A stretch of DNA of 61,400 nt, filler included, from Sphacelaria rigidula (lineage: Eukaryota): the NCBI GenBank assembly GCA_964200075.2. It is 8 parts of 8 records of this genome, joined end to end, with 100 filler letters (N's around TTAATTAATTAA, not from the genome) between each part and the next. Parts side by side here need not be neighbours in the genome. Positions count along the whole stretch, not along the records: positions 15,378 to 22,965 come from CAXNAA020014201.1; positions 23,066 to 30,652 come from CAXNAA020014202.1; 6 more parts are not named here. One strand, 5' to 3'. Numbering within the stretch: the first letter of the stretch is position 1; each line of letters starts with the position of its first letter. The position numbers were made by a program, and so were the translations under genes. This document shows, piece by piece, positions 340 through 53,864 of this stretch. The notes beneath the pieces are model-generated. The model saw only the letters and a list, made by a program, of their open reading frames with translations. It was not told the origin of the DNA and did no database searches.

Positions 340-2567
340 CTGCTCGTAGGCCTCGACGGGATCGGGGCAGTCCGGGGCGGGTTCCGTGGGTGATGGGGTT
401 GGATTAGCCTCTCCATCTGGAAGAAGAAAAGTGAAAGACGACGACAAACGGCAGGGAGTCGTGTTCCACTCGAGTCATTTGCGGCCCGTCACTGTCTGCA
501 CTGCTCACGCAGCTGAGGTGAACAGTATAGCACAACCATTGGATACGCGGTACGAAGAGAACAGCGCAAGTCAAGTGTGCGGGTACAGCGCGGGTGAGGG
601 TACTGGACTCGACTACAGATTGCTCTCTTCGCACTATACGTCGTGAATAACCGCCCCGCTTCGGTATATTCCAAAATGATCCTCTCCCAACTGTTTGTGT
701 GTGGAGAACAAGGATCAATTGACCCTTCAACCGCCTGGGTGGGGTCACCTATCTCCCCGTGGAATCTGCACTAGTTACTCTAGAAAAACGGAGGAAAAGA
801 GACGCTACACGACACCCTGGCGGTGAAGGGGGGAGCGAACGACCTTGTTCATCCACGCCTGGCCATCAAAACACACCAACAAATTTGTCACCACGATCTG
901 TCGTGTCGTGAGAAAAACACATAACTTCCGTCTTCCCCCTTCCCTCCCCCCGCCTGCTCCCTGCCGCTCCCTTTGAGGAGGTGGCGGGGGAAAAAAAAGA
1001 AAGTTATCTCACCGGCGGTGATAGCGATATCGGCACAATTCCAGAACTCCTCGGGGTAGGCACCGTCCTCTCCGCACGTCTTCAGGCCCAGATCGATCCA
1101 GTCCCTCTTTTCGGGAGCGCACGCGCTCGGCCAGGAGGCAGGGTCGAATTCTTCGTAGCCCACGTGCTTGCATGCGTTGCCCGTGTCTTTCGTTGATTAT
1201 TTCATTCGTTTTTTTCAAGAGGACGAGAGTGCCGGGAAAGACGAAAAGTGAACACATACTACTTTATCATCGGAAATGTTTCGTTTCGACAGCGTGAGCG
1301 TTGCCGGCTGTGCGGCTGGGAGAGGAACCGAGCGAAGGGTCTGGGTGGAGGGGGGTAGGAGGCGTACTCATTTGTTGCTTGCCTTGGTCGTTTGACCATT
1401 GACCACGGATGCCTTCGAGACGGAGCACCGTTCCTACTCCTAATAGACACCTCCAACATTCTGGCGCTCATTACACGTCCTTACACGAAGGCATTTTACA
1501 TATCCAGGGCGGGGGGGGGTGTCGACATGCACAAGATTTCCTTTTCGTCACACTTCCAACCTCTCCCCTCCCTTGGAACGAGTCCACGGCGTTGAAGGAT
1601 CAACCCACCCTCACTACAAGTAGGCCCAAAGAAGTGTACGTACACGAAGATTGAAACTAGATTTTACGTGATTTCCAAGTGAAAAAAATGCAGTGAGAAA
1701 TTGCATGGTTTTGGGCAGGTGAGCAGTGGTGAGCAGTTTTGGTCCAATCAGCGCCTGCGGCGTCGATTTGAGCTCTAGCAACGCACACTTTGCTTAGCAA
1801 ACACTCTGCACCTCCCTTGCCCGAGGGTTCTCGGTATGCCTTGGTCGTGGTTAGGGCCTTTCTTAGCACATTACTTTTCCATCAAAATTGTGCGGTGGAA
1901 AACAAAAAACCCGATCTGATAGGTCGTAATTCCACTAGGGTTAATGTGGAAGAGTTAGCAAAAAAAAATGGCAGTACAAACAAGAAAACGAAAAAAACAG
2001 GTACGCGCAACCGCAGTACTTTTACTCCTACACAGCACAAATCCGTACGTACGGTACAAGGCAAGACAAGACAAGTGATACTGTATCCGCAAACACGTTC
2101 ACACGTCTGCTCGTAAGGAACTAATGCAATCGACAGAAGGACGTACAATACGTAGATACGTACTGTGCATGTGTACGTGCACCACGTACAAGGATGAGAC
2201 CTAGAAATTTTGTCTCAATATTATTTTGTAGTCTGGTGTCTTTATAGCGAAGTGAAGTGTACACGAGGCAAAACTCACAGTAAACCATCTGTAAGATGCA
2301 CCGCTTGCAGATCAGTCCCCTGGGCAGATCGTACGTCATGTGCATTACGTAGCCCTCCGCCGCTTCCTCCGGCTTGTCCTGGACCGTTTCCTTCTCGCGA
2401 CACTCGGGATCCACGTAGTATCGCCCGGGATAGCTTGGGTCGATCGGGCTGTTGACACCATCGCCGGCGGTCCGTGTCAGAGGATTCATATTGAAGCAAC
2501 CCTGCGTAGGCACTCCATCGGGATCCGAGAGATCCTCAGAGTTGCAGAGGAAAAATTCCAGGTGGCC
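340..2567 (-). CDS. Partial lytic polysaccharide monooxygenase (AA15/LPMO_10-like) gene; exons 2279-2567, 1013-1186, 340-416
   Basis: GT-AG exons with compatible phases splice to GHLEFFLC...YDLPRGLICKRCILQMVY|YTGNACKHVGY...YPEEFWNCADIAIT...PTPSPTEPAPDCPDPVEAYEQ. These are the C-terminal motifs of AA15-type LPMOs followed by a P/T linker. The 5' histidine-brace exons were not found, and no further 3' exon was identified. Confidence 0.8.
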
Positions 2568-3640
2568 CTGAAAGAGACAGTGAGAAGCAAAACGAGATAC
2601 GAAAAAACACACACAGCATTACCGAGAAAAAAGAAAAAAAGGGTAAAATATTGATGGTGATGCCGCGATGTCTTCTGATTTATGTACTACGCACGTATCA
2701 GCACCACTTGCACGAGTGAAAAGAGAGAAACACCGTGCGTCACATTGAAGAATAAAAAACTATTGAAAAGTTTTTTCACACGCGTAAGAAGAGGAACACA
2801 TCGCAAGTTCAGAGTTCAGGCGTATACCATCATCAGTGATGCAGGCGGGCATGATACAAGTGGTCGTTTTCGGAACAGTTAGAATGATAGTTGTCGAATG
2901 CCTGGAAAAAAACAAATAAATAGAGCGTTGTACGAGGCACAAAACCCATACAGTAACCGCGGTAAGAACTCATGTATTACGGAATCGACGACTGCGCCCA
3001 CTTCATCACGACTAGTGAAGTCACATCCGGAAATTTTGGACTTCACTTCTTCCGCCACGTCGGAAAACGTCGATAATGCTATTATAATATTTATTTTGTT
3101 GCTTTCGCCTGGCAAGACCTTCACGTTCCCGTGCAACCCCAGCTACGACTGGACAGTGGACCATGTGGGCAAAAAGTGTATTCTGTTGCGCAGGATGTAT
3201 GTGGAATATCTCCTCCCTTCATGAAATAACATATTTGGTGACGTGTGCCAACTGTCACAGACGCGTCCGGTTGCGAATCAACACCCCATCATCTAAAACA
3301 GACCCTTACGGGAGGGATTCATGGGGACTCCCGACTGCTCAACACCGCTGCGAGGAACATGCTCCCACTTTCGCTGCAATGCACGGGATGATCTAAACGA
3401 ACGTACCCATGCATCCACCGCAGTCAGATGCGCAACTGGTCGTGTACGTAGCGAGGGTTGATCGATTGCCAACTCCTTGCGAGGACGCTGGGTGTGTTAC
3501 GGTCAAAGCGCAAGGAACGCGAATGAGCTTGCAACAAGAGAGGAGGAACGAGGGCATGGGCCCGTGACATATGGCGAATGTCGAAGGTTATCCTGTAGAT
3601 GCCAGGTATTGTAGGGGTTGCAAAGGCAGGCCGGCGAGGA

Positions 3641-7589: not shown

Positions 7590-7689
7590 NNNNNNNNNNN
7601 NNNNNNNNNNNNNNNNNNNNNNNNNNNNNNNNNTTAATTAATTAANNNNNNNNNNNNNNNNNNNNNNNNNNNNNNNNNNNNNNNNNNNN
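7590..7689. other. Artificial contig linker (also 15278-15377, 22966-23065, 30653-30752, 38340-38439, 46027-46126, 53714-53813)
   Basis: Each is 100 bp of N flanking TTAATTAATTAA (stops in all six frames); they separate segments of 7589, 7588, 7588 and then 7587 bp. Confidence 0.97.
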
Positions 7690-14550: not shown

Positions 14551-15806
14551 ACAGGTATGGTGGACAAAAAAGGAGGTGTCCCGCACTGCCTGCTGTTGTC
14601 GTGATAGTTTCAATAACTCTTTTTTTTCGGGACGGGTCCGCAGTGTCGAGGGACCGACTCATTTCTCGTCCGGTACGTACACGCCTTGCATTTCGGTATC
14701 TTTGGTTCCATCAGATCTTTCGAACTTTGACTCTGCTGCTCACGCCCTCACTTGTTTTTTCACCAGGCGGCAACCGGATTTTCCTCGGAAAGTAGAACCT
14801 TATTGTAGACTCGTACTGAGAATTGAGGTCGTCAAGGAAGAATCAAGGCACAGAAAATAACCAAACGGGCCTGAGGACTCATGTGGTTATCCATAGCATG
14901 GGATCATCCTCGCAGGTAGCAGAGGTTACAGCGCAGCTAATCCTCATGGAATGGCACCGCGCTGTTTGTGTTTGCTGGGTGATGCTGAAGAAAACGTAAC
15001 CCGTATTTTTATGCTACCTTGATGCTGGTATGGAGAGGGTTGATTAGGTTGACGACAAAAATGAAGGGACGATGTACCTTTTCACGTCTCTGCGCTCGCA
15101 AGCTTGTTGATTCTGTTTTCGATCAACATTCCTCCTCTCCTATATATGACTATGGCATGCAAGATGATGAGTACGCCCATCCCCCCCCCCCCCTTCTGCC
15201 TGGTCCGGCGAGAACCCGGCGTGCTCCGTCCCGGCTTTGTAGGGGCGGACCCCCGATGGGGTTGGCGTCGCTTGGCGNNNNNNNNNNNNNNNNNNNNNNN
15301 NNNNNNNNNNNNNNNNNNNNNTTAATTAATTAANNNNNNNNNNNNNNNNNNNNNNNNNNNNNNNNNNNNNNNNNNNNACTGTTTTGGGCTTGAGCCTCAT
15401 CTCGAAGTTAAACCTCAATTCGCACAATTTGTTGTTATCTGTTCATTTTACCAAAATCTACCGACGCTAGCACTTTCGAGTTTTATCGAAGAGTAGTCGC
15501 GAGAAAAAACCCTTCTGAAGAAGAGTGGTCCAGGCGCCCAGTACTGTAAGTTACGAATGGACCTGCAAACTCCGAATCCGCTCGTAGGCTGGCCCAGCTC
15601 GTACCACGAGTACTGTCTTTACTTGTACTGCCGTCAGGTACAGACCCCAATTCTACTGTCATTTCGTCCGTAATATTGTAAGCATCTTTGTTGTAAAATC
15701 ACTATACTAAAATTGGTATAAACATAGCCGGTAACGGCAAACTTCAAATATACTGGATAAACTGGAGTCCTCATTACCAGTTGCACTCAAACTCCAGTTC
15801 CAGTGT

Positions 15807-22550: not shown

Positions 22551-23324
22551 GCCCAAATGAGTCGCGTCGTGCAGCACGAAACCAGCTCTTACGGCATTTA
22601 TGATCATCGTCTCCGTGCACGTTTTTGGCCGGTTCGGGGGGGGGCTGTCTCGGCAGCAGTCGGTTGTACAAAGCTTCGTTGCGTGACGAAACGCTGATCC
22701 CAAACGTTCAGTGCAAACTTGAGCCCACAAGAAAACGGTCGGTAGCATACTACAGTCGAGTAATTAGGGGGGATACGCGTACATTTTCCTACTTCAACAC
22801 ACACGCGCGCATGTTCTCACACGGGTTTTGGAGTCAGACGCCGAAATATCACACACATGATCTCCGGAATATTTCAATATTTCGAGACTGTGTACAGAGG
22901 GGGGGGGGGGGGGGGGGGGGGTTTTTTTTTTTAAATTTCAAAGGAGAGTATGGAGCATAATTTGTNNNNNNNNNNNNNNNNNNNNNNNNNNNNNNNNNNN
23001 NNNNNNNNNTTAATTAATTAANNNNNNNNNNNNNNNNNNNNNNNNNNNNNNNNNNNNNNNNNNNNAGTCAACGTCGGACCTACAACGGCCCCGACACGCT
23101 CGGGCCGCCGACCCGCCAATATCTGCAGCCGCCGACCGATGTGTGCGCAATGCCAAAGCTACTATGCCCGATCTCGACGGCTCACAGCTACAACGGGTTG
23201 GCTTGGCCGAACGCACACTCCCGGTCGACCTCGATCCACCGCACCAGCGCAACAGCGTCAACACCGCACCATCTCGTACACACAGCGACACACACGACCA
23301 CGACAACGTCGCCCCGGCTCTCAC

Positions 23325-26300
23325 CTGATCTTGCAACAACGTCGCGCGGTTGTGGAGCGTTAAGGCCAACGCAGGGTGCTCCGGGCCGAGAACCTTCTCC
23401 CTGATCGACTGGCACTGCTGGTAGAGGCGTGCGGCCTCGGCCAACTTGCCCTGCAATGTAGTACACGACGCACAACCACCACACAACAGTCAACGTCGGA
23501 CCTACAGCGGCCCCGACACGCTCGGGCCGCCGACCCGCCAACTTCTGCAGCCGCGGACCGATGTGTGCGCAAGGCCATGGCCACCATGCCCGATCTCGAC
23601 GGCTCACAGCTACAACGGGTTGGCTTGGCCGAACGCACACTCGCAGTCAACCATGACCCACCGCACCAGCGCGACAACACCGACACCACACCATCTCGTC
23701 CACGCGTCGACACACACGACCACTACAACGTCGCCCGGGCTCTCACCTGATCTTGCAACAACCGCGCGCGGTTGTTGAGCGTTGTGGCCAAATCAGGGTG
23801 CTCCGGGCTGAGGACCTTCTCCATGATCGACTGGCACTGCTCGTAAAGGCGTGCGGCCTCGGCCAACTTGCCCTGCAATGTAGTACACGACGCACGACCA
23901 CCGCACAGCAGTCAACGTCGGACCTACAACGGCCCCGACACGCTCGGGCCGCCGACCCGCCAACGTCTGCAGCCGCCGACCGATGTGTGCGCAAGGCCAT
24001 GGCCACCATGCCCGATCTCGACGGCTCACAGCTACAACGGGTTGGCTTGGCCGAACGCACACTCCCAGTCAACCATGACCCACCGCACCAGCGCAACAAC
24101 ATCGACACCAAACCATCTCGTCCACACGTCGACACACACGACCATGACAACGTCGCCCCGGCCCTCACCTGAGCTTGCAACAACAACGCGCGGTTACTGA
24201 GCGTTGTGGCCAAATCAGGGTGCTCCGGGCCGAGAACCTTCTCTCTGATCGACACGACCTTGACGGCTCACAGCTACAACGGGTTGGCTTGGCCGAACGC
24301 ACACTCGCAGTCAACCTTGACCCATCGCATTAGCGCGACAACATCAACACGACACCATCTCGTCCACGCGTCGACACACACGACCACTACAACGTCGCCC
24401 GGGCTCTCACCTGATCTTGCAACAACCGCGCGCGGTTGTTGAGCGTTGTGGCCAAATCAGGGTGCTCAGGGCCGAGGACCTTCTCCTTGATCGACTGGCA
24501 CTGCTCGTAAAGGCGCGCGGCCTCGGCCAACTTGCCCTGCAATGTAGTACACGACGCATGGCCACCACACAACAGTCAACGTCGGACCTACAGCGGCCCC
24601 GACACGCTCGGGCCGCCGACCCGCCAACGTCTGCAGCCGCCGACCGATGTGTGCGCAATGCCAAAGCTTCTATGCCCGATCTCGACGGCTCACAGCTACA
24701 ACGGGTTGGATTGGCCGAACGCACACTCCCCGTCGACCCTGACCTACCGCACCAGCGCAACAGCATCAACACCACACCCTCTCGTACACACAGCGACACA
24801 CACGACCATGACAACGTCGCCCCGGCTCTCACCTGATCTTGCAACAACGCCGCGCGGTTGTGGAGCGTTGTGGCCAACGCAGGGTGCTCCGGGCCGAGGA
24901 CCTTCTCCCTGATCGACTGGCACTGCTCGTAAAGGCGCGCGGCCTCGGCCAACTTGCCCTGCAATGTAGTACACGACGCACGACCACCACACAACAGTCA
25001 ACGTCGGACCTACAGCGGCCCCGACACGCTCGGGCCGCCAACCCGCCAACGTCTGCAGCCGCCGACCGATTTGTGCGCAATGCCAAAGCTACTATGCCCG
25101 ATCTCGACGGCTCACAGCTACAACGGGTTGGCTTGGCCGAACGCACATTCGCTGTCAACCTTGACCGATCGCACCAGCGCGACAACATCAACACCACACC
25201 ATCTCGTCCACACGTCGACACACACGACCACGACAACGTCCCCCCGGCTCTCACCTGAGCTAGCAACAACCCCGCGCGGTTGTTGAGCGTTGTGGCCAAG
25301 TAGTACACGACGTATGGCCACCACACAACAGTCAACGTCGGACCTACAACGGCCCCGACACGCTCGGGCCGCCGACCCGCCAACGTCTGCAGCCGCCGAC
25401 CGATGTGTGCGCAGGGCCATGGCCACCATGCCCGATCTCGACGGCTCACAGCTACAACGGGTTGGCTTGGCCGAACGCACACTCGCAGTCAACCATGACC
25501 CACCGCACCAGCGCAACGTCAACACCACACCATCTCGTCCATACGTCGACACACACGACCACGATAACGTCGCCCCGGCTCTCACCTGATTTTGCAACAA
25601 CAACGCGCGGTTGTTGAGCGTTGTGGCCAAATCAGGGTGCTCTGGGCCGAGGACCTTCTCCCTGATCGACTGGCACTGCTGGTAGAGGCGTGCGGCCTCG
25701 TCCAACTTGCTCTGGCGTTCCAACGACAACGGGAGACAGGGTTCCTCAGTGACAATCTCATTCGAAGTATCAAGTCAGGAGATCACGACATCCATTCGAT
25801 GACCCGCACGGTAGTATCAAGACGCTCCAGGCCAAGGGACTCGTCTTAGACATAAGTGTATACTGTACCGTACACGTTTTCTGGACATCCGGCACTAGCC
25901 ATACTCCAGGATTACGGCGTAGACCGTCAAACACACCCACTTGGTAAGATGAAAACGCGAAGGACCCACTGAGATAACACCACAGAGCAGTATCGTAGAT
26001 GGTCGGCACCGTTGAGTCTTGGCATGGATTGGACGCAGTATAGCAGCCAGCGTAGCATCAGCGGAGTTGATGTGTCTTAACGATTGCTCCAAACTTCGAT
26101 TTCACCACTTGTGAAATGACAGCAGCTGCACAATTAACAAATTTTCTCGACCTTCAAGTTTTGCGCGAAACCGGGAAAGCATTAATTGCCGCCCCAATCC
26201 TTCGCCCCGGGCAATAATCTGCTAGTTATATCATCTGGCGCACGTCTACGGTCCTGTGTGGGTCTACGGTATTGTATTAGTAAGGATACAATCTACTGCG

Positions 26301-29300
26301 CAAAGGGTTCATGTTGTACGTTGCGAAGCGAACTTCACAGAAGTCCTACCCTCTCTTTGCCGTCTCAGAGTACCGTCTGCACAGATGTATTTCATGGGTT
26401 TACACTGGCGAATGACGTACACCCAAATATACTCAGTCATTGGTTTACATCAATCGCGGGATAATACAGTGCGAAATGAGAGGACGAGCAACATTCGTTG
26501 CAACGCGTCAACGGACATCAATATGCTTCCCAGAACCCACACCGCACGGACATGAGCATCACCCACGTCCCAAGCGCGAGCAGCGTCGTGCCGATGGAGA
26601 TATCGTTGCTTATGATCAATTTTAGGCTCAGTAAATAAAAGCTACACTATCACGTTTTGCGCCCCTGAAGGTACTCCTTTGGTACAGAATCGTGAAAATG
26701 ATGAAATAGACCACAGACACTTTTTTTTTTTGGGGGGGGGGAAGTCTTCCGCACATCAGTTGGGGATATATGCTGTACCTGTCCTTTGAAATACGTCGGG
26801 AGAAAGAGCGCAGTTCAGCCTCGTACTGTCCATGGGCGAAAAAGATTATTTCCACAAATCTACCGCCTAAACGGTATATTACTCTCGAACATTCGAGTGG
26901 GAGCGTTTCGTTTAGGGTGTTTTTTACTGTTGTTTCTTGGGGGGATTAGTTTCATTCTCGGGGCATTACGGTTAAACAGGGAATATCGCCGTCACATGTC
27001 TCGGGCACTTTGGATTACCTCACTGAGAGGGTGCTAGCCCAAATTTCCGATTCGCTTGGCTCTGAGGTTTCGAGGATTGCCTCCGAAAAATATACAGCCA
27101 GACATGAAAATGCGGTGTCTGCAGTAATCTGAAATGATCTCTAGATTTTCCCACACCGTGTCCACATTTTCCATGTACACCCATTTATATTCGGAGGCAA
27201 TCCTCCAAATCTCGGAGCCAAGTGAATCGGAAAAGTGGGCGAGACGCCTCCCAGTGACATGATACGAGGTGTCTAGCACGTGTAATGGCGATCTGCCCTA
27301 ATTGGGAGGCAGAAGCCGTGCCAAACGTCCCAAAACTGGAAAATATGTCACCCCAAATATCAACCGTAATTACAGACTCGCTCACGCGTATCGAGCCTAA
27401 ACATACGCATCTACAGAACTTCATGACGTTTCCAGGAGTTGGTTCGCCCATAAAGGTTTGCACAGATGTTTCATGGCTCACGACGCAACTCTAGAAGAAA
27501 GAAGCTTTTGTACTTCTTGATTTTGTTCACCGTTTTTCGGGAGTGTCATGGTTCTTGGGGAAACTTCGACCCAGCGGACCCCAGGCAAACGGTCAGAGGT
27601 CATAACGTCAACAAGACTCGTTGATCGAAAATGTCATGTAGACCCATAGTATATGCGTGCAAAGTTTCAGATAACAAATATAAGGGAAAACGACGGTTTC
27701 GGTCAACGCTCTTAGCTTACAAGAGTAGGTAAAATGCGCCGAAAAAGTATCTACGCGATGTCAGGGACAATAACGGTTTCGGTCAGCGCTCTTAGCTCAC
27801 AGAGTTGGTAAAACTCGCTGAAAACGTATCTACGCGGTCAGGGGGCATTCGGCCGACAAAAACGTCATCGGGCACCATCTCTGAAAGTGGGGGGGGGAAC
27901 AGTGTTTAGTGCTTGAACGTCATGTTAGTGTACAACCTCATTTTATAGAATTGACAAAATTGTTGAGTCCTGAGTTACTGATATCGAAACCGCTTCCCTA
28001 CCCTGCACCCTGAGAACCGAGTAGGCGAGCATGGTCCGTTGAATTACTCGAATATAGTACGATCAGTTTTGAAACCTTGGCTGCGGTGTAGTCGGTCTAA
28101 ATTCCCTACAATAGCCAACATTACCTACGGACCAAAAAAGCTCGTTTACGTGAGCTTGGTGTGCCGGTACACATGTGGCTCTATGCTAGAGATTTCTCGA
28201 CTTGTTCACCTGAGTTGCGATCTGGAAAAGGGCGCTGAAAACAGTTTACATGGCATGTTATCAGAACTCAAACGCGTACTTTTGTCATTTTTTGATACGG
28301 CGAGAAGTTCAGAAGGGCCAGAAAAATGTACCCGTCAGCTCAGCAGCCACCCCCAAACCTTTTACGTCCAGCTTCTACCGTAGTGGGGTGATGTGCACGA
28401 CGATAACGGGAAGCCGGCATCATTAGGGAGCGTATTCAGTGGCCGCATCGATTGTAGACCTTGGTACCTTGAAGGTTTGGCAGACAAGATTTCCATATCC
28501 AATGAGAGAGTGTGCCCGGACTTCAGCCGAAGTGCCAGATGGAAAACTCAACCTCGCTTTGGTCTACAGTTAGACTGGATGCTTCACTAGATGCTAGAGA
28601 AGAATTGGAGACAACGGCATTCTTTCAATCAGCTAATATGGGTGCATTTGTAAACAATCAGAATTGTGCAAGGATTTGGCAGGAATTCGCAACCCTGGGT
28701 TGATATCCACGCGCACGACGTATTATTGCGCAGAAGCATCGGGAATCCGTTATTTTCCGGATTAAAATGATATTTGGCTGAAAATACTCAACACAAAGGA
28801 AAGCGATACCTCGAGTCTTCGAGTAGTCGTGGCCGTGCCCGAAATGGGACCATCGTTTGGAGAGTATCGTGACATCGAACCACGCGGAACGGACTGCTTT
28901 CAGATCCATCAGAGTAGATATGTGCGACGTGTGGATACTCCACACCCAGTGCTTTCTCTCCAATGGGGTGGGCCCACGGAACGTACTAGCCTCCGTGTAT
29001 TTACACTGTGTCACGACGACCAATTGGCAATAGCGAGTAGCTCATCAACCACTCCAAAGCTTCAACATATTTTCGACGGGACGAAACCTTTCCACACCTT
29101 GGACAATATATGGTCAATAGTTGCAATACACAAGAACGTACTGCATGAAGTACAGGCCTACTGCGACAACTATCGGCCGGCAATAGTTGCGACAGGCCTA
29201 TAATTTATGCAGTACACTTCTCGTCTTTCGCCTCTATTGACCATGAATTGTCCAGGGTGTGAACCTTTCACAATACCACTACCCATCTTGACAACACCTC

Positions 29301-29907
29301 CAGCCTAAGCGATGGACTTGGCTACAGACAGTCACCGTCGTGACGAGCCAAACTTTCTCGGTGGGAACACCTCGACATTGCTCGGGCCAGATTTCACCTT
29401 TCGTGCTGTGGGCGTTCTTCACCAAAAATCAATAGCTTGCAAAAGCCGTCTCGTCTCCTGATAAAGGTTTGACCCAAGGCCAGAATGGCCGTGACAAACA
29501 TACCAAGAACCCACCTGTCGGTAAAACAGTATACCGATGAGCGCATACGCGTCGGCCACGTCCGTCGACTCGGCTCGACCCAACTCCCCCAGGCTGGCTC
29601 TATATCTCTCCACCTCCAGCTGCTCATTGCCGGCCAGTTCCTCCAGTGACCACCACAAACGACCCAGCGCGTATACGTCTGTGCTCAGTCCCTGACTGTT
29701 GAAAAACTCCCGGACCACAGAAAGTCTGCTCAAGTACTGCGCTTGGCGCCCCACAGCATCCTCGACCAACCCATGCCTCTCCTCACTTCTACACTCAAGT
29801 TTGATGAAATCCAGCAGCAGGTCGTGCACGAAAAAGGAGCCTTCCACCTCATGCAACAGTGCATTCTGCGCTAGGTAATCAGCGTTTTCCTTTGCACTTT
29901 CGTCATC
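23325..29907 (-). CDS. Partial NB-ARC-TPR (NLR-like) gene; exon 29515-29907 then 126-nt TPR exons 25586-25711, 24833-24958, 24411-24536, 23747-23872, 23325-23450
   Basis: The 393-nt phase-0 exon carries LAQNALLHEVEGSFFVHDLLLDF (MHD-type winged-helix motif of STAND ATPases). The 42-aa exons (GKLAEAARLYEQCQSIREKVLGPEHPDLATTLNNRARLLQDQ-type) are kinesin-light-chain-like TPRs with cag| and |gtgag sites. The P-loop exons were not identified. Confidence 0.88.
24169..24253 (-). pseudogene. Truncated TPR exon lacking its acceptor
   Basis: The unit is 180 bp short; the remnant reads SIREKVLGPEHPDLATTLSNRALLLQAQ|gtgagg and is fused to mid-intron sequence. Confidence 0.85.
25255..25299 (-). pseudogene. 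Truncated TPR exon lacking its acceptor
   Basis: The remnant LATTLNNRAGLLLAQ|gtgaga is fused directly to the intron at 'tgtggccaa|gtagtacac'; the unit is ~90 bp short. Confidence 0.85.
26980..27300. mobile_element. Foldback palindrome element (same family as 44115-44810)
   Basis: Inverted arms ttccgattcgcttggctctgaggtttcgaggattgcctccgaa / ttcggaggcaatcctccaaatctcggagccaagtgaatcggaa. Confidence 0.75.
27690..27845. repeat. ~80-bp tandem duplication
   Basis: acggtttcggtca.cgctcttagct.ac...gtatctacgcg occurs twice. Confidence 0.75.
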
Positions 29908-31589
29908 CTGCAGCGATATCGAGTCACCATACACAAGTCTGTGTTAGGCGAGCGCGATCCTACAAGTTTCACGAAACGACGGTTCCGACGGCTCCACCTT
30001 ACAGTAAGATCACTTCACAACGCTGTTGCGGAAGCCTGAATTCTCACTTCCGACACTCGTCTACTGTAAATAGTCTACATGGACGAGGACTCGCATCTTA
30101 TCAACGTTCAACCCATGCCCCCGACCGACGTGCGCCAAACCCAGAACGTCTGGAGGTGAGAAGTGCCACACTGACATCAACTAGCTTCGGCATCAAAAAT
30201 GAAAACAAGCTCTTTTTTCAATCGCCGTGGATTCAAAGGTGTCCTTCAGCTTGTTGTTTGAATTGCAACTGCGAACAACTGGTGGCTTGATCTTGGCTGA
30301 CGTCGAAGTGGACTTACTGCCGACATGGAGGGCACACCTAACGCTTCACCGTACCAGGCAAATATGAGCGCCGGATACCTCAGAATCAAGTGTAAGCTCA
30401 CAGTGCACATGAATCAAGCTATGCCAACCATCGGACATGCCGACTAGAACACCCCTTGCACAGGAATGGGGCATGGCTTGTAAAAATGGTGCTGATTTCG
30501 CAACCCTCACCAGGTAGCACGTATATCAAGAGGTCTGTGGCCGATGCAACGACGCTTGCGAATGAACCGCACCTTCTTCCAGAGCGCGGCCAGCATTGCA
30601 GTTGATGCCCAAACACCACGGGTCAGCACAACCAGACTCAGGAACATGTCCTNNNNNNNNNNNNNNNNNNNNNNNNNNNNNNNNNNNNNNNNNNNNTTAA
30701 TTAATTAANNNNNNNNNNNNNNNNNNNNNNNNNNNNNNNNNNNNNNNNNNNNCCCCCCCCCCCAGCGATTACCCTGACCCGTAACTCAAAAATTCCAAAC
30801 TCCAAATGGGCAGGTACCAGCGGGGAATCTGTGCTACCGTCGGTACCGTCGAATGGCGATGGAGACAGGATTGAGAGCAGTCTCGTGGCTACAGATTTTG
30901 GAGATGGGATCATGGGAGTCAGAAGCCGCAAGGAGCGAATAGACGCCATGCCGGGCATCCACAAAGTCCAGTTTACGTGGGGCTATGCGTTTCTCAATCA
31001 ACAGTGAGGCAAACTAATTCTGGGTTGCTTTTCAGTCACGCCTTGCACTTGATCACAAGCCACACAAAACATGTTGGGGCTTCAGCCGTCCTTGGACACG
31101 TTGTCTCTCATCTTCCATCGAGAGTTTGCTACTACCATTGCTACCGAAAGTTTGCGATCATGCTTACTGGTCTAGTCTTTTGAGGCGTATTATTGGTTGT
31201 TTGTCCCTGCGCAGTAGTGTCTGCAATGCGATTGCTATCGGCGTTTCAGTGTTTGAGGCGACATATATTTTGTCAATTGCCATATTTCTGGTATATGATC
31301 ATTGGTGAGCTCGTTGTGTCGGGTCACAATATACCCATGCGTCTCACACTGAAAGGCATATATATGCTGTCACACTTTCAACCCTCTCAATCCTCCCCAT
31401 CCTCTGAGCGAGTCCGTGGGCTCAAGGGATCAATCCATCTCCCCCGTGATGCACACCTTACGTTGTGATACGGCGAATGGGATCAGCACTCCCGCACCAT
31501 TTCGATTCTGGTCAAACGAAGTCTTGTTACTATTCATGTCAACATGTTTTTAACGCCGGAAATCATATACTTGCCAGAAAAAAAACAAA

Positions 31590-37790: not shown

Positions 37791-38439
37791 CCTGCCAAAG
37801 GTCTACGACTCCGTACAGGCTGGGCCAGCCTACAAGCGGATTTGTACTTTGCAGGCGAATTCGCAATTTTGTTTCTTGGAGTTGNNNNNNNNNTTGCCAA
37901 TCAGGGGGGCATGAAGAAAAGCTGTCTGTGTGTTCCTTATGTTTTTTTTTTTTTTCGTGAATTAAGGGCATTTTACTGAAACCTCAAAACTGATTTTTGC
38001 CCTCATTCACGAAAAAAAAATCGTTAGGACCTCACACACCGCTTTCCTTCATGCACTGTTGATTGTCCGTATCAAATTTCACTTTCCAACTCCAAGACAA
38101 AAATTGCGAATTTACATTTGAAAAACCGAGGCGGTAGAAATTCGGAACAGTATTTTGCAGGCCGTTTATCGGCCCATGTTTGGTGTTTGTGGGTTGAAAC
38201 TTTGACTAATGCCGAGTTAGCCCCCCCACAAAAAGTGCACCGGCACCATCCAACAAACCGGCTGCGATCCCACTATTGGGCTCGTTTGCAGCAATTTCGC
38301 CCACATGATGGGCGTGTAGCAGTCCGAAATCAGCTATAANNNNNNNNNNNNNNNNNNNNNNNNNNNNNNNNNNNNNNNNNNNNTTAATTAATTAANNNNN
38401 NNNNNNNNNNNNNNNNNNNNNNNNNNNNNNNNNNNNNNN

Positions 38440-45966: not shown

Positions 45967-46323
45967 GAGTGATGCTACGGTAGGGGTACAGAAATAATTT
46001 CTGAGATTAGAATTGTTAGGAGGCCCNNNNNNNNNNNNNNNNNNNNNNNNNNNNNNNNNNNNNNNNNNNNTTAATTAATTAANNNNNNNNNNNNNNNNNN
46101 NNNNNNNNNNNNNNNNNNNNNNNNNNGGACGCCTTCCGTGGTCACAGGCTAGCAAAAAAACAAAAAACAAAATAGACCCAGATTAAAACTCACAAAACGC
46201 TTGCAGTGTGGTACGCTTCACGGTCAATTTGGTATTTTAGTGGCCCCGTGTATTAACTTCTCCGTGATGGAAAACATTTTTTTTGGCGTTTGGTTGCTTG
46301 GTTGCGGTGTTTGTCAAAAACAG

Positions 46324-52497: not shown

Positions 52498-53864
52498 GTG
52501 AGTCATCGGTTGGGGTATGAACAATAACACATGACGTATTTTGAGGTGGTGAGATGATGCTCTTCAGACGTCGGACCCACTTCATGACCGATGAATGTGA
52601 GGTAAAACATTGGGCAACCAACCCTAAAGAAATGATATGTACGCGCTGCAACGGCTGTTGAGGTATTCCTTCTACTATAATTGTACAGGTATTGGGCAAA
52701 CTATCCATTCTTGTCTTCGTGTTCACCGTCCTCCCCTTTCCCGAAGAAATGTCACTTTTTGACATGATGGCCCTTTCCGATGGAAGTAGTGCAGACGACT
52801 TTGCACTCTGATCTCTGGTGCTCGAATTCTCCACAACCCCAGCATCCCACCTAGCCTTTCCTACCACCTTTCTGGCCCTTGCTGACAGCAAGAGCGGCAG
52901 TCGTTGGTCCGGAAGCCTTCTTGGCTGCCTCAGCCTCAGCTTTCGCTACCGCCGCAGTGTCCTGTAGGTGACTTTGACGTGACGCAATGGTGCGTACCAA
53001 TTCCGCACGGGTGATAAACCCGTCACATCACATCGTATGGGCTTCGATCTCATACACGAGATTAGATGCTACCGGCGCTATAATAAGGATGTTCACGCCT
53101 GCCCGGCTGGATGCACGGTTCGAACAGAGTACGGTAGCAATTGACTTCGTATATGCGATTACAAATAGCGTTGCTTTGTGGGTACTCAAGTTTGGGGATG
53201 AAATTAGTCGGCCCCACCTAACTATCTGTATCGTTCGGGCTAACTATAGTCGGACTGAAGGTCGGCCTAGTACTTAACTGCACTTGCTGTGTGACCGATA
53301 TCGTACTAAGGTTCAGATGAAGCTCTGCCTCGGCCGTTGAAGCACCATGTGCATATCGTGTCTAATCGTACGCTGAGATCTGATTTTGGTTTCAAGTTGG
53401 AGTACTCTGCCTTCAATATTCACACATCCACACACACGTACTTCCTCTGTCCCATAAGTCTGTATCGTTACGGACGTTTAATCGTGTGGGTATTTCAATG
53501 CTCACGATCATGCTGCAGTTGGGCTCGTTAGAGAGATAACGTGCAGACGAAGCTGACTGAGAAAAAAAAAGAAGAAAAAAAACTTGTTTTCAATACTAGA
53601 ATCATATAAAAATATACCCGATTTTGGACGTTTCGACGTCGAGCACTGGCGATTACATGCTGAAAAGTTGTCAGATGGGGGTGTGTAAATTAACGTCACG
53701 GATATATCCAAATNNNNNNNNNNNNNNNNNNNNNNNNNNNNNNNNNNNNNNNNNNNNTTAATTAATTAANNNNNNNNNNNNNNNNNNNNNNNNNNNNNNN
53801 NNNNNNNNNNNNNCCCCCCCCCCCTACTTTAATGTGGATTGATCACGTGATCTTCAGGATAAAC

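Follow-up and report, generated by a model that had tools for sequence, protein, structure and literature searches.

The DNA analysed here (hereafter the window) is a 61,400-nucleotide stretch of the Sphacelaria rigidula assembly GCA_964200075.2. A single unplaced contig of 7,587 bp within it (CAXNAA020014202.1, positions 23066-30652) carries on its minus strand what is very probably the 3' part of an NB-ARC-TPR receptor gene: a partial and a complete exon related to the winged-helix region of NB-ARC proteins, a large intron, and a tandem array of exons that each encode one TPR period (Table 1). The locus is confined to this contig. Its extent had been given as 23066..29907 in the original prediction; the gene runs further upstream, to the contig end at 30652. 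On the other side the array stops at a contig break, as had been noted, the last cassette intron being cut at 23066.

Table 1. Features of the locus and the adjoining linker, listed in the 5' to 3' direction of the minus strand. X1, X6, X7 and X8 are runs compared as Logan contigs (see below).
Feature	Position	Strand	Remarks
Partial exon, 2 nt + 26 codons (DMFLSLVVLTRGVWASTAMLAALWKK), first part of winged-helix (ARC2) region	30573..30652	-	cut by contig end
665-nt GT-AG intron	29908..30572	-	joint in X6, X7 and X8; not in X1
393-nt exon (VHD exon), 131 codons: rest of winged helix with VHD, helical linker, first TPR helix A	29515..29907	-	phase-0 end
3,803-nt intron with dispersed repeats	25712..29514	-	joint 25711>29515 in X6 and X8
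TPR exon E1, 126 nt, phase 0/0, starts SKLDEA	25586..25711	-	TPR_10 E 1.6e-08, TPR_12 E 1.9e-08; RNA-like contigs link it to the VHD exon
E1 intron (286 nt, 25585-25300) fused to dead cassette pA (45-nt exon, 25299-25255)	25255..25585	-	period 334
296-nt cassette intron	24959..25254	-	joint 24957>25254 in X6
TPR exon E2	24833..24958	-	open exon, Pfam
296-nt cassette intron	24537..24832	-	
TPR exon E3	24411..24536	-	open exon, Pfam
Shortened 148-nt intron running into dead cassette pB (24252-24169, 84 nt of exon left, in frame)	24169..24410	-	period 242
296-nt cassette intron	23873..24168	-	
TPR exon E4	23747..23872	-	open exon, Pfam
296-nt cassette intron	23451..23746	-	folds no better than shuffles, z 0.48
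TPR exon E5	23325..23450	-	open exon, Pfam
Next cassette intron, first 259 nt	23066..23324	-	cut by contig end
100-base artificial linker	22966..23065	.	identical linker at 30653-30752

Results

A tandem array of TPR cassettes

Tandem Repeats Finder detected a period of 422 bp between 23066 and 25299 (91% matches, scores 2012 and 1810), together with derived secondary periods of 334 bp and 242 bp. The array holds seven GTGAG donors on the minus strand, and five of its seven cassettes are intact, each having an open 126-nt exon (42 amino acids) with an AG acceptor before it. The cassette unit is made up of this exon, in phase 0 at both ends, and of a 296-nt intron duplicated along with it. Such 422-bp units had been described in the original prediction, and both the five intact exons and the mean pairwise identity of the introns (92.3%) agree with that description. 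All five intact exons scored above the Pfam cut-offs for TPR_10 (32.7-36.7 bits, cut-off 27.5) and TPR_12 (34.1-36.2 bits, cut-off 30.1), and the repeats are pairwise identical at 35-40 of their 42 residues (83-95%). Residues 1-27 of the exon match positions 16-42 of the TPR_10 profile; each exon thus spans parts of two repeats, with helix B and the linker coming from one and helix A from the one after it.

The two other cassettes, pA and pB, have lost their acceptors. In pA an 88-bp deletion runs from the final 7 nt of the intron through the initial 81 nt of the exon, and a 180-bp deletion in pB takes away the 3' part of the intron, the acceptor and the start of the exon. Both inactivated exons lie within introns and on the coding strand, and all tblastn matches of three related proteins (P0001-P0003, see below) are on the minus strand. 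The idea that any number or order of cassettes would preserve frame and repeat register is compatible with intact exons that each span one repeat period in phase 0/0; it does not extend to the whole array since, with pA and pB dead, not every cassette is usable.

Variation along the cassette intron is uneven. In unit columns 234-287 (for instance 23639-23586, in the E4 unit) 1 of 54 columns is variable, versus 31 among the 107 columns at the intron start; the pB deletion has its left breakpoint in this near-invariant block. A structured RNA or small-RNA precursor within the intron was considered and rejected: 133 of 200 shuffled sequences folded as well as the intron (z 0.48), none of the 97 predicted pairs had a compensatory change among the four full-length introns of the seven, and a search of the contig against Rfam gave no match.

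Upstream exons and their NB-ARC paralogues

A search of longer proteins (613 candidates) returned three matches to the VHD exon, all named Sphacelaria rigidula by NCBI. The closest, P0001 (633 aa), is 95% identical to the exon and has its C-terminal end at the exact exon end. In P0002 (1,226 aa, 77% identical) an NB-ARC domain is followed by many 42-residue repeats matching TPR families; P0003 is 68% identical. The VHD exon has an open reading frame and shares 125 of 131 residues with P0001, leaving six amino-acid differences, and in the partial exon upstream, which ends in the donor AAG/GT, 26 of 26 residues are identical to P0001 residues 477-502 (tblastn).

P0001 matches the Pfam NB-ARC family at residues 222-443 (E 8.9e-19) and can be aligned with residues 121-447 of Apaf-1 (E 8.7e-21), the VHD of the former falling on the LHD of the latter. 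The segment FFVHDLLLDF, the same in P0001 and in the window, is aligned with YYLHDLQVDF of Apaf-1 and thus contains the conserved histidine motif (MHD/LHD) of the winged helix; H, D, L, L, D, F and I of the VHD segment are invariant in ten of ten aligned relatives. The P-loop (Walker A) and Walker B of P0001 lie inside its NB-ARC match. The contig begins at the equivalent of P0001 residue 477, past that match, and the window's equivalents of both motifs would lie upstream of the contig end. Judging from the paralogues, and from P0001 chiefly, the window gene would possess a similar NB-ARC core. The original description of the locus as an NB-ARC-TPR receptor therefore rests directly on the TPR exons and on the likeness of the VHD exon to P0001, and indirectly, through P0001, on a core that is off the contig. 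The Pfam search placed the VHD exon in no family and found no match in the N-terminal part of the paralogues. A structure prediction for P0001 from a 10-row alignment gave an unusable model (mean predicted local distance difference test score 36.2, predicted template-modelling score 0.29).

At its 3' end the VHD exon leads into the repeats. Both the TPR_10 profile (positions 1-42) and position 1 of the TPR_1 profile start within the P0002 segment that is homologous to the end of this exon, which must therefore supply the first TPR helix A; with its 131 codons, the exon ends in phase 0 after a helix-A-like segment, just as had been proposed. Six shorter open reading frames (ORFs) in the database (P0004-P0009, 47-97% identical) all pass, at one and the same point, from the VHD exon into a codon that begins with GT, an indication that the phase-0 donor is conserved across paralogues. 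One of these, P0004 (154 aa), is a third variant of the VHD exon in which residues of the window type (R, Y) are mixed with residues of the P0001 type (N, E, Q, T). The mixture suggests a third copy, hence more than two near-identical copies, or else exchange between copies. Matches of P0002 residues 838-897 cross the donors into introns of the array (25585-25544, 24410-24369 and 23324-23274, the first 42-51 nt), and the P0002 gene model reads through an intron whose start resembles that of the array's intron. The cassette intron is thus common to a paralogue only 77% identical in the VHD exon.

Splice joints and locus copies

Logan contigs from four runs were compared with the locus: X1, which is DNA-like, and X6, X7 and X8, for which the label "RNA?" is a guess. 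X1 covers 30 of 30 bins, introns included, and lacks exon-exon joints; it thus behaves as DNA. Among the three RNA-like runs, joints with GT..AG ends were found between the two upstream exons in all three (29906>30572), between the VHD exon and E1 in X6 and X8 (25711>29515), and between a pA-like donor and an E2-type start in X6 (24957>25254). The joint across 29908-30572 skips 665 letters and its ends read CT..AC on the plus strand. The splicing of the exon at 29515 to TPR exons, without which the original prediction would not stand, is therefore observed for at least a near-identical copy.

Further joints connect cassette types in other combinations. In X7 the VHD exon was joined to a GKLAEAARL-type start (28 letters, placed at E5), and the start reached from a pA-like donor, of the E2 type in X6, was of the E4/E5 type in X8. 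All three RNA-like runs joined an E5-like end to an E4-like start, a joint that "goes back 548"; since the E5-like end continues into a further TPR exon, at least one more cassette must lie beyond the contig end. Loose contig ends show exon types absent from the contig, such as a GKYNEAEPLF type, and the DNA run X1, too, contains a full exon whose 3' part is pA-like. The joints rest on 20-33 letters within a repeated family whose cassettes are told apart by 1-2 letters, and Logan contigs drop minor variants. Paralogous cassettes account for the varied joints at least as well as alternative splicing does.

The unique intron occurs in X1 in two versions, the first without any difference from the window over 25971-26248 and the second about 2% divergent, with 57 differences among the 2,857 letters of seven listed contigs. 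Summed word depth in X1, which is not copy number and includes paralogous cassettes at least 95% identical, was 1,418-3,606 in most bins of the array, 168-259 in three of them (24078-24836), and 124-321 in the unique parts; such values are compatible with an array collapsed in the assembly, as had been proposed, and equally with one that is not. Intron-only bins were uncovered in the RNA-like runs, an observation that was not used as evidence.

Cassette history and variation of binding-face codons

Mean pairwise identity is 90.1% for the exons as against 92.3% for the introns, so within the unit conservation is no higher in the exons. In a four-gamete test 146 of 435 informative site pairs were incompatible, and the cassettes must therefore be mosaics of past recombination or conversion. 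One example is E5, which goes with E1 at exon positions 27 and 31 but, from position 80 onwards and on into the intron, with E2. The array had been taken to be young. The cassette introns, however, differ by 7.7% on average (4.7% in the closest pair, E3/E4), more than the roughly 2% that separates the locus versions; the cassettes are older than that split and the array is not especially young.

Synonymous differences per site (pS) among the five intact exons amount to 0.099, close to the intron distance of 0.084. Helix A (15 codons) has exactly five variable codons, 30, 33, 37, 40 and 41, and all ten of its variable nucleotides sit in codons whose amino acid differs among copies. Mapping by way of Pfam TPR_1 (exon residue 2 is profile position 16; residue 18 of the P0002 fragment is position 1) equates these codons with TPR positions 2, 5, 9, 12 and 13. 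In PMC1261162, the most variable, concave-face positions of TPRs are given as 2, 5, 9, 12, 13, 33 and 34. Within the five codons 10 of 15 nucleotides are variable, whereas the introns vary at 51 of their 296 (Fisher p 5.8e-05), and the mean pairwise difference is 0.286, compared with 0.077 in the introns (a ratio of 3.7) and 0.048 elsewhere in the exon. Amino-acid variation occurs at 11 codons, five of which are among the seven concave-face positions (hypergeometric p 0.0085). Although gene conversion may distort the picture, the pattern fits a conserved scaffold whose binding face is under diversifying selection.

The large intron and the make-up of the window

No coding potential was found in the 3,803-nt intron, none of its seven ORFs of 101-145 aa having a Pfam match. 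Summed X1 depth rises to about 33,600-104,000 at 27620-28125 and about 9,700-45,700 at 28885-29390, versus about 120-320 in the flanks, and many contig ends are loose at 29089-29093 and 29123-29137 in all four runs; these look like the borders of a high-copy dispersed repeat. Length variants in X1 (joints 27759>27842, 27759>27845 and 27759>27851) occur at an 80-bp direct repeat (27678-27721 / 27758-27801). An inverted repeat at 26978-27087 / 27190-27299, with 110-nt arms that are 75% complementary and 102 nt apart, might be the remnant of a foldback element, and at 26712-26748 a run of C is followed by a run of A, a homopolymer tract that the run comparison passed over as a repeat and where reads are apparently cut. 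Low-depth contigs (depth 6-8) in X6 and X7 join 25711 to 26152 with GT..AG ends, which indicates a nested or alternative donor inside the large intron, in a copy about 2% divergent.

The window is a chain of separate unplaced contigs of 7,587-7,589 bp each. They are joined by seven filler linkers (7590-7689, 15278-15377, 22966-23065, 30653-30752, 38340-38439, 46027-46126 and 53714-53813), artificial sequences of 100 bases (N44, TTAATTAATTAA, N44) that recur about every 7,687 bases. Since both flanks of the locus are linkers to unrelated contigs, the neighbouring sequence offers no gene context and the adjacency has no biological meaning. Outside 23066-30652, tblastn with P0001-P0003 gave no match in the window, and none of the ten ORFs of at least 170 aa in the other contigs belonged to a Pfam family.

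Discussion

Interpretation of the locus

We interpret the contig as the 3' part of a brown-alga NB-ARC-TPR gene, encoding an Apaf-1-like STAND NTPase (signal transduction ATPase with numerous domains) whose TPR-superhelix sensor is assembled from exon cassettes with a history of recombination, and put the probability of this reading at roughly 85%. It is carried by the anatomy of the locus, by joints showing that a near-identical copy is spliced where predicted, by the mosaic history of the cassettes and by the excess variation at their binding face. The C-terminal sensor would be a superhelix of 42-residue TPRs, each repeat period corresponding to one 126-nt phase-0/0 exon. Tandem multiplication of the 422-bp unit of exon plus intron would provide the cassettes, which unequal homologous recombination, gene conversion and slippage between units could then add, remove and remix; because the co-duplicated introns form long stretches of homology, such remixing need break neither the frame nor the repeat register. 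The same events would also leave behind dead cassettes devoid of acceptors, and selection would subsequently favour changes at residues lining the concave binding face. The resulting receptor presumably senses a ligand and has a role in immunity.

A number of observations weigh against this interpretation. The Pfam search of the contig (23066-30652) found neither a P-loop nor an NB-ARC match, and no member of the family has been functionally tested according to the extracts of PMC3341825 available to us. Two of the seven cassettes, pA and pB, are dead and acceptor-less; together with the unplaced status of the contig, this means that the copy may be decaying or partly misassembled. No joint is listed in the X6-X8 contigs for the E1 donor or for E2>E3, E3>E4 and E4>E5. 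The transcribed copy, moreover, seems to be another one. RNA-like intron contigs carry the letters of the second X1 version at seven of seven listed positions (26914-27128) and so derive from a copy about 2% different from the window copy. The RNA-like VHD exon has 5-6 differences from the window, which probably equal the six amino-acid differences from P0001, and an exact match to the window was found only in two unspliced, low-depth contigs of X7, possibly DNA carry-over. As to selection, the ratio of nonsynonymous to synonymous differences per site (pN/pS), pooled over the five intact exons, is 0.69 and thus not above 1; the comparison covers only seven short copies, and the TPR_1 alignments that underlie the mapping are below the Pfam cut-off (E 0.013 and 0.16).

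Alternative explanations

It is possible, though in our view improbable, that diversity arises mainly at the RNA level, cassette exons being skipped or chosen combinatorially to give many isoforms per gene; such a process could also add to the genomic one. Every cassette is in phase 0/0, the VHD exon is joined to the E1 start in X6 and X8 and to the GKLAEAARL-type start in X7, and pA-like donors lead to an E2-type start in one run (X6) and to an E4/E5-type start in another (X8). Alternative splicing is also the explanation favoured for brown-alga NB-TPR and ROCO genes (PMC11378527, citing Teng et al. 2023). However, joints as short as 20-33 letters, in which one or two letters discriminate and from which Logan contigs drop minor variants, are explained as well by the many near-identical paralogous cassettes present in the same runs. 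Doubtful, too, is the notion that the contig copy is a dying duplicate, an alternative haplotype or a partial assembly artefact, so that its cassette order is not that of a working gene. The unplaced 7.6-kb contig does end inside the array, two of seven cassettes lack acceptors, it is the other version of the locus that the RNA-like contigs match, and a complete exon resembling pA in its 3' part occurs in X1. Yet the five intact exons and the VHD exon are open and have good splice sites, inactivated exons are normal inside working Ectocarpus genes (PMC3341825), and over 25971-26248 one X1 contig equals the window exactly.

Frame-neutral cassettes, a mosaic history and exon neighbours that differ between RNA-like runs give indirect support to the idea that programmed or somatic recombination builds a receptor repertoire within the individual, the adaptive-immunity hypothesis of Zambounis et al. 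2012, where the mechanism of shuffling was left open (PMC3341825). We consider this highly improbable. According to PMC11378527 and PMC12879055 no somatic recombinants have been reported, nor, according to the former, a dedicated recombinase, and plain homologous recombination suffices: introns duplicated with their exons and about 92% identical give it ample substrate and make a dedicated recombinase unnecessary. Somewhat less improbable, but still quite unlikely, is a milder version in which cassettes recombine on the time scale of individuals or cell lineages and, together with skipping, yield a combinatorial TPR repertoire. Cassette number and order would then differ between strains or tissues, at this locus and at its near-identical copies, and the differing exon neighbours in the RNA-like runs would be the first trace of ongoing cassette recombination.

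Duplicated together with the exons, the introns are a built-in neutral yardstick; relative to it, the rate of change at the predicted binding-face codons is about 3.7 times as high. Multicellularity arose independently in brown algae, whose pathogen sensing is, to our knowledge, almost unstudied by experiment. The locus offers a compact test case and leaves the known picture of the family unchanged.

Comparison with known systems

A literature search found no account of NB-ARC-TPR cassette arrays in Sphacelaria. The locus nevertheless belongs to a known gene design, published for Ectocarpus in 2012 and for other brown algae in 2023. Ectocarpus has 24 NB-ARC-TPR loci, 13 of them with TPR domains from 126-nt/42-aa exons; inactivated TPR exons, without splice sites or shortened, lie almost all on the coding strand inside working genes, and local duplications and diversifying selection are described (PMC3341825). 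Teng et al. 2023, as cited in PMC11378527 and PMC12879055, extended the design to other brown algae and favoured alternative splicing for NB-TPR and ROCO genes, and the Phaeoexplorer preprint reports expanded NB-ARC-TPR orthogroups. The original prediction's appeal to this literature on exon shuffling and alternative splicing was a fair one (PMC3341825; PMC11378527). With the Ectocarpus genes the present locus shares the exon length, the exon register (G-K...Q, as in the published search pattern), inactivated coding-strand exons, local duplications and multiple near-identical copies, and possibly diversifying selection as well. It differs in that its closest proteins are named Sphacelaria rigidula, from another brown-algal order, that only a 3' gene fragment is at hand, and that it forms a regular 422-bp array with introns conserved like exons, a feature not described in the available extracts of PMC3341825. 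Intron co-duplication or the selected TPR positions may already be described in Teng et al. 2023 or in the supplements of PMC3341825.

The ROCO leucine-rich-repeat (LRR) GTPases of brown algae follow the same principle of one repeat per exon, with frame-neutral cassettes, exon shuffling and reported alternative splicing (PMC3341825; PMC11378527). Their LRR exons, however, are of 72 nt and in phase 2, a Roc-COR GTPase takes the place of the NB-ARC, and shuffled exons are often on the non-coding strand, whereas all tblastn matches found here are on the coding strand. Fungal NB-ARC-TPR receptors of the NOD-like receptor (NLR) type resemble the locus in their 42-residue TPRs, in highly identical neighbouring repeats whose number is changed by recombination, and in variable or selected sites on the concave face (PMC4986451; PMC13449251); "weak" high internal conservation has been mentioned for brown-alga receptors, and the parallel with fungal NLRs drawn, in PMC13449251. 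In the fungal genes the conserved repeats are described as uninterrupted coding sequence, and the class calls for an identity above 85% across 100 aa or more; here duplicated introns of 296 nt separate repeats that are 83-95% identical. The locus works like the fungal NLRs with highly internally conserved repeats without being a member of that group. As regards the nucleotide-binding part, finally, P0001 aligns with Apaf-1 (PDB 1z6t and others) over the whole nucleotide-binding, helical and winged-helix region; Apaf-1 combines this region with a CARD domain and a WD40 sensor, where the present gene has a sensor made of TPRs.

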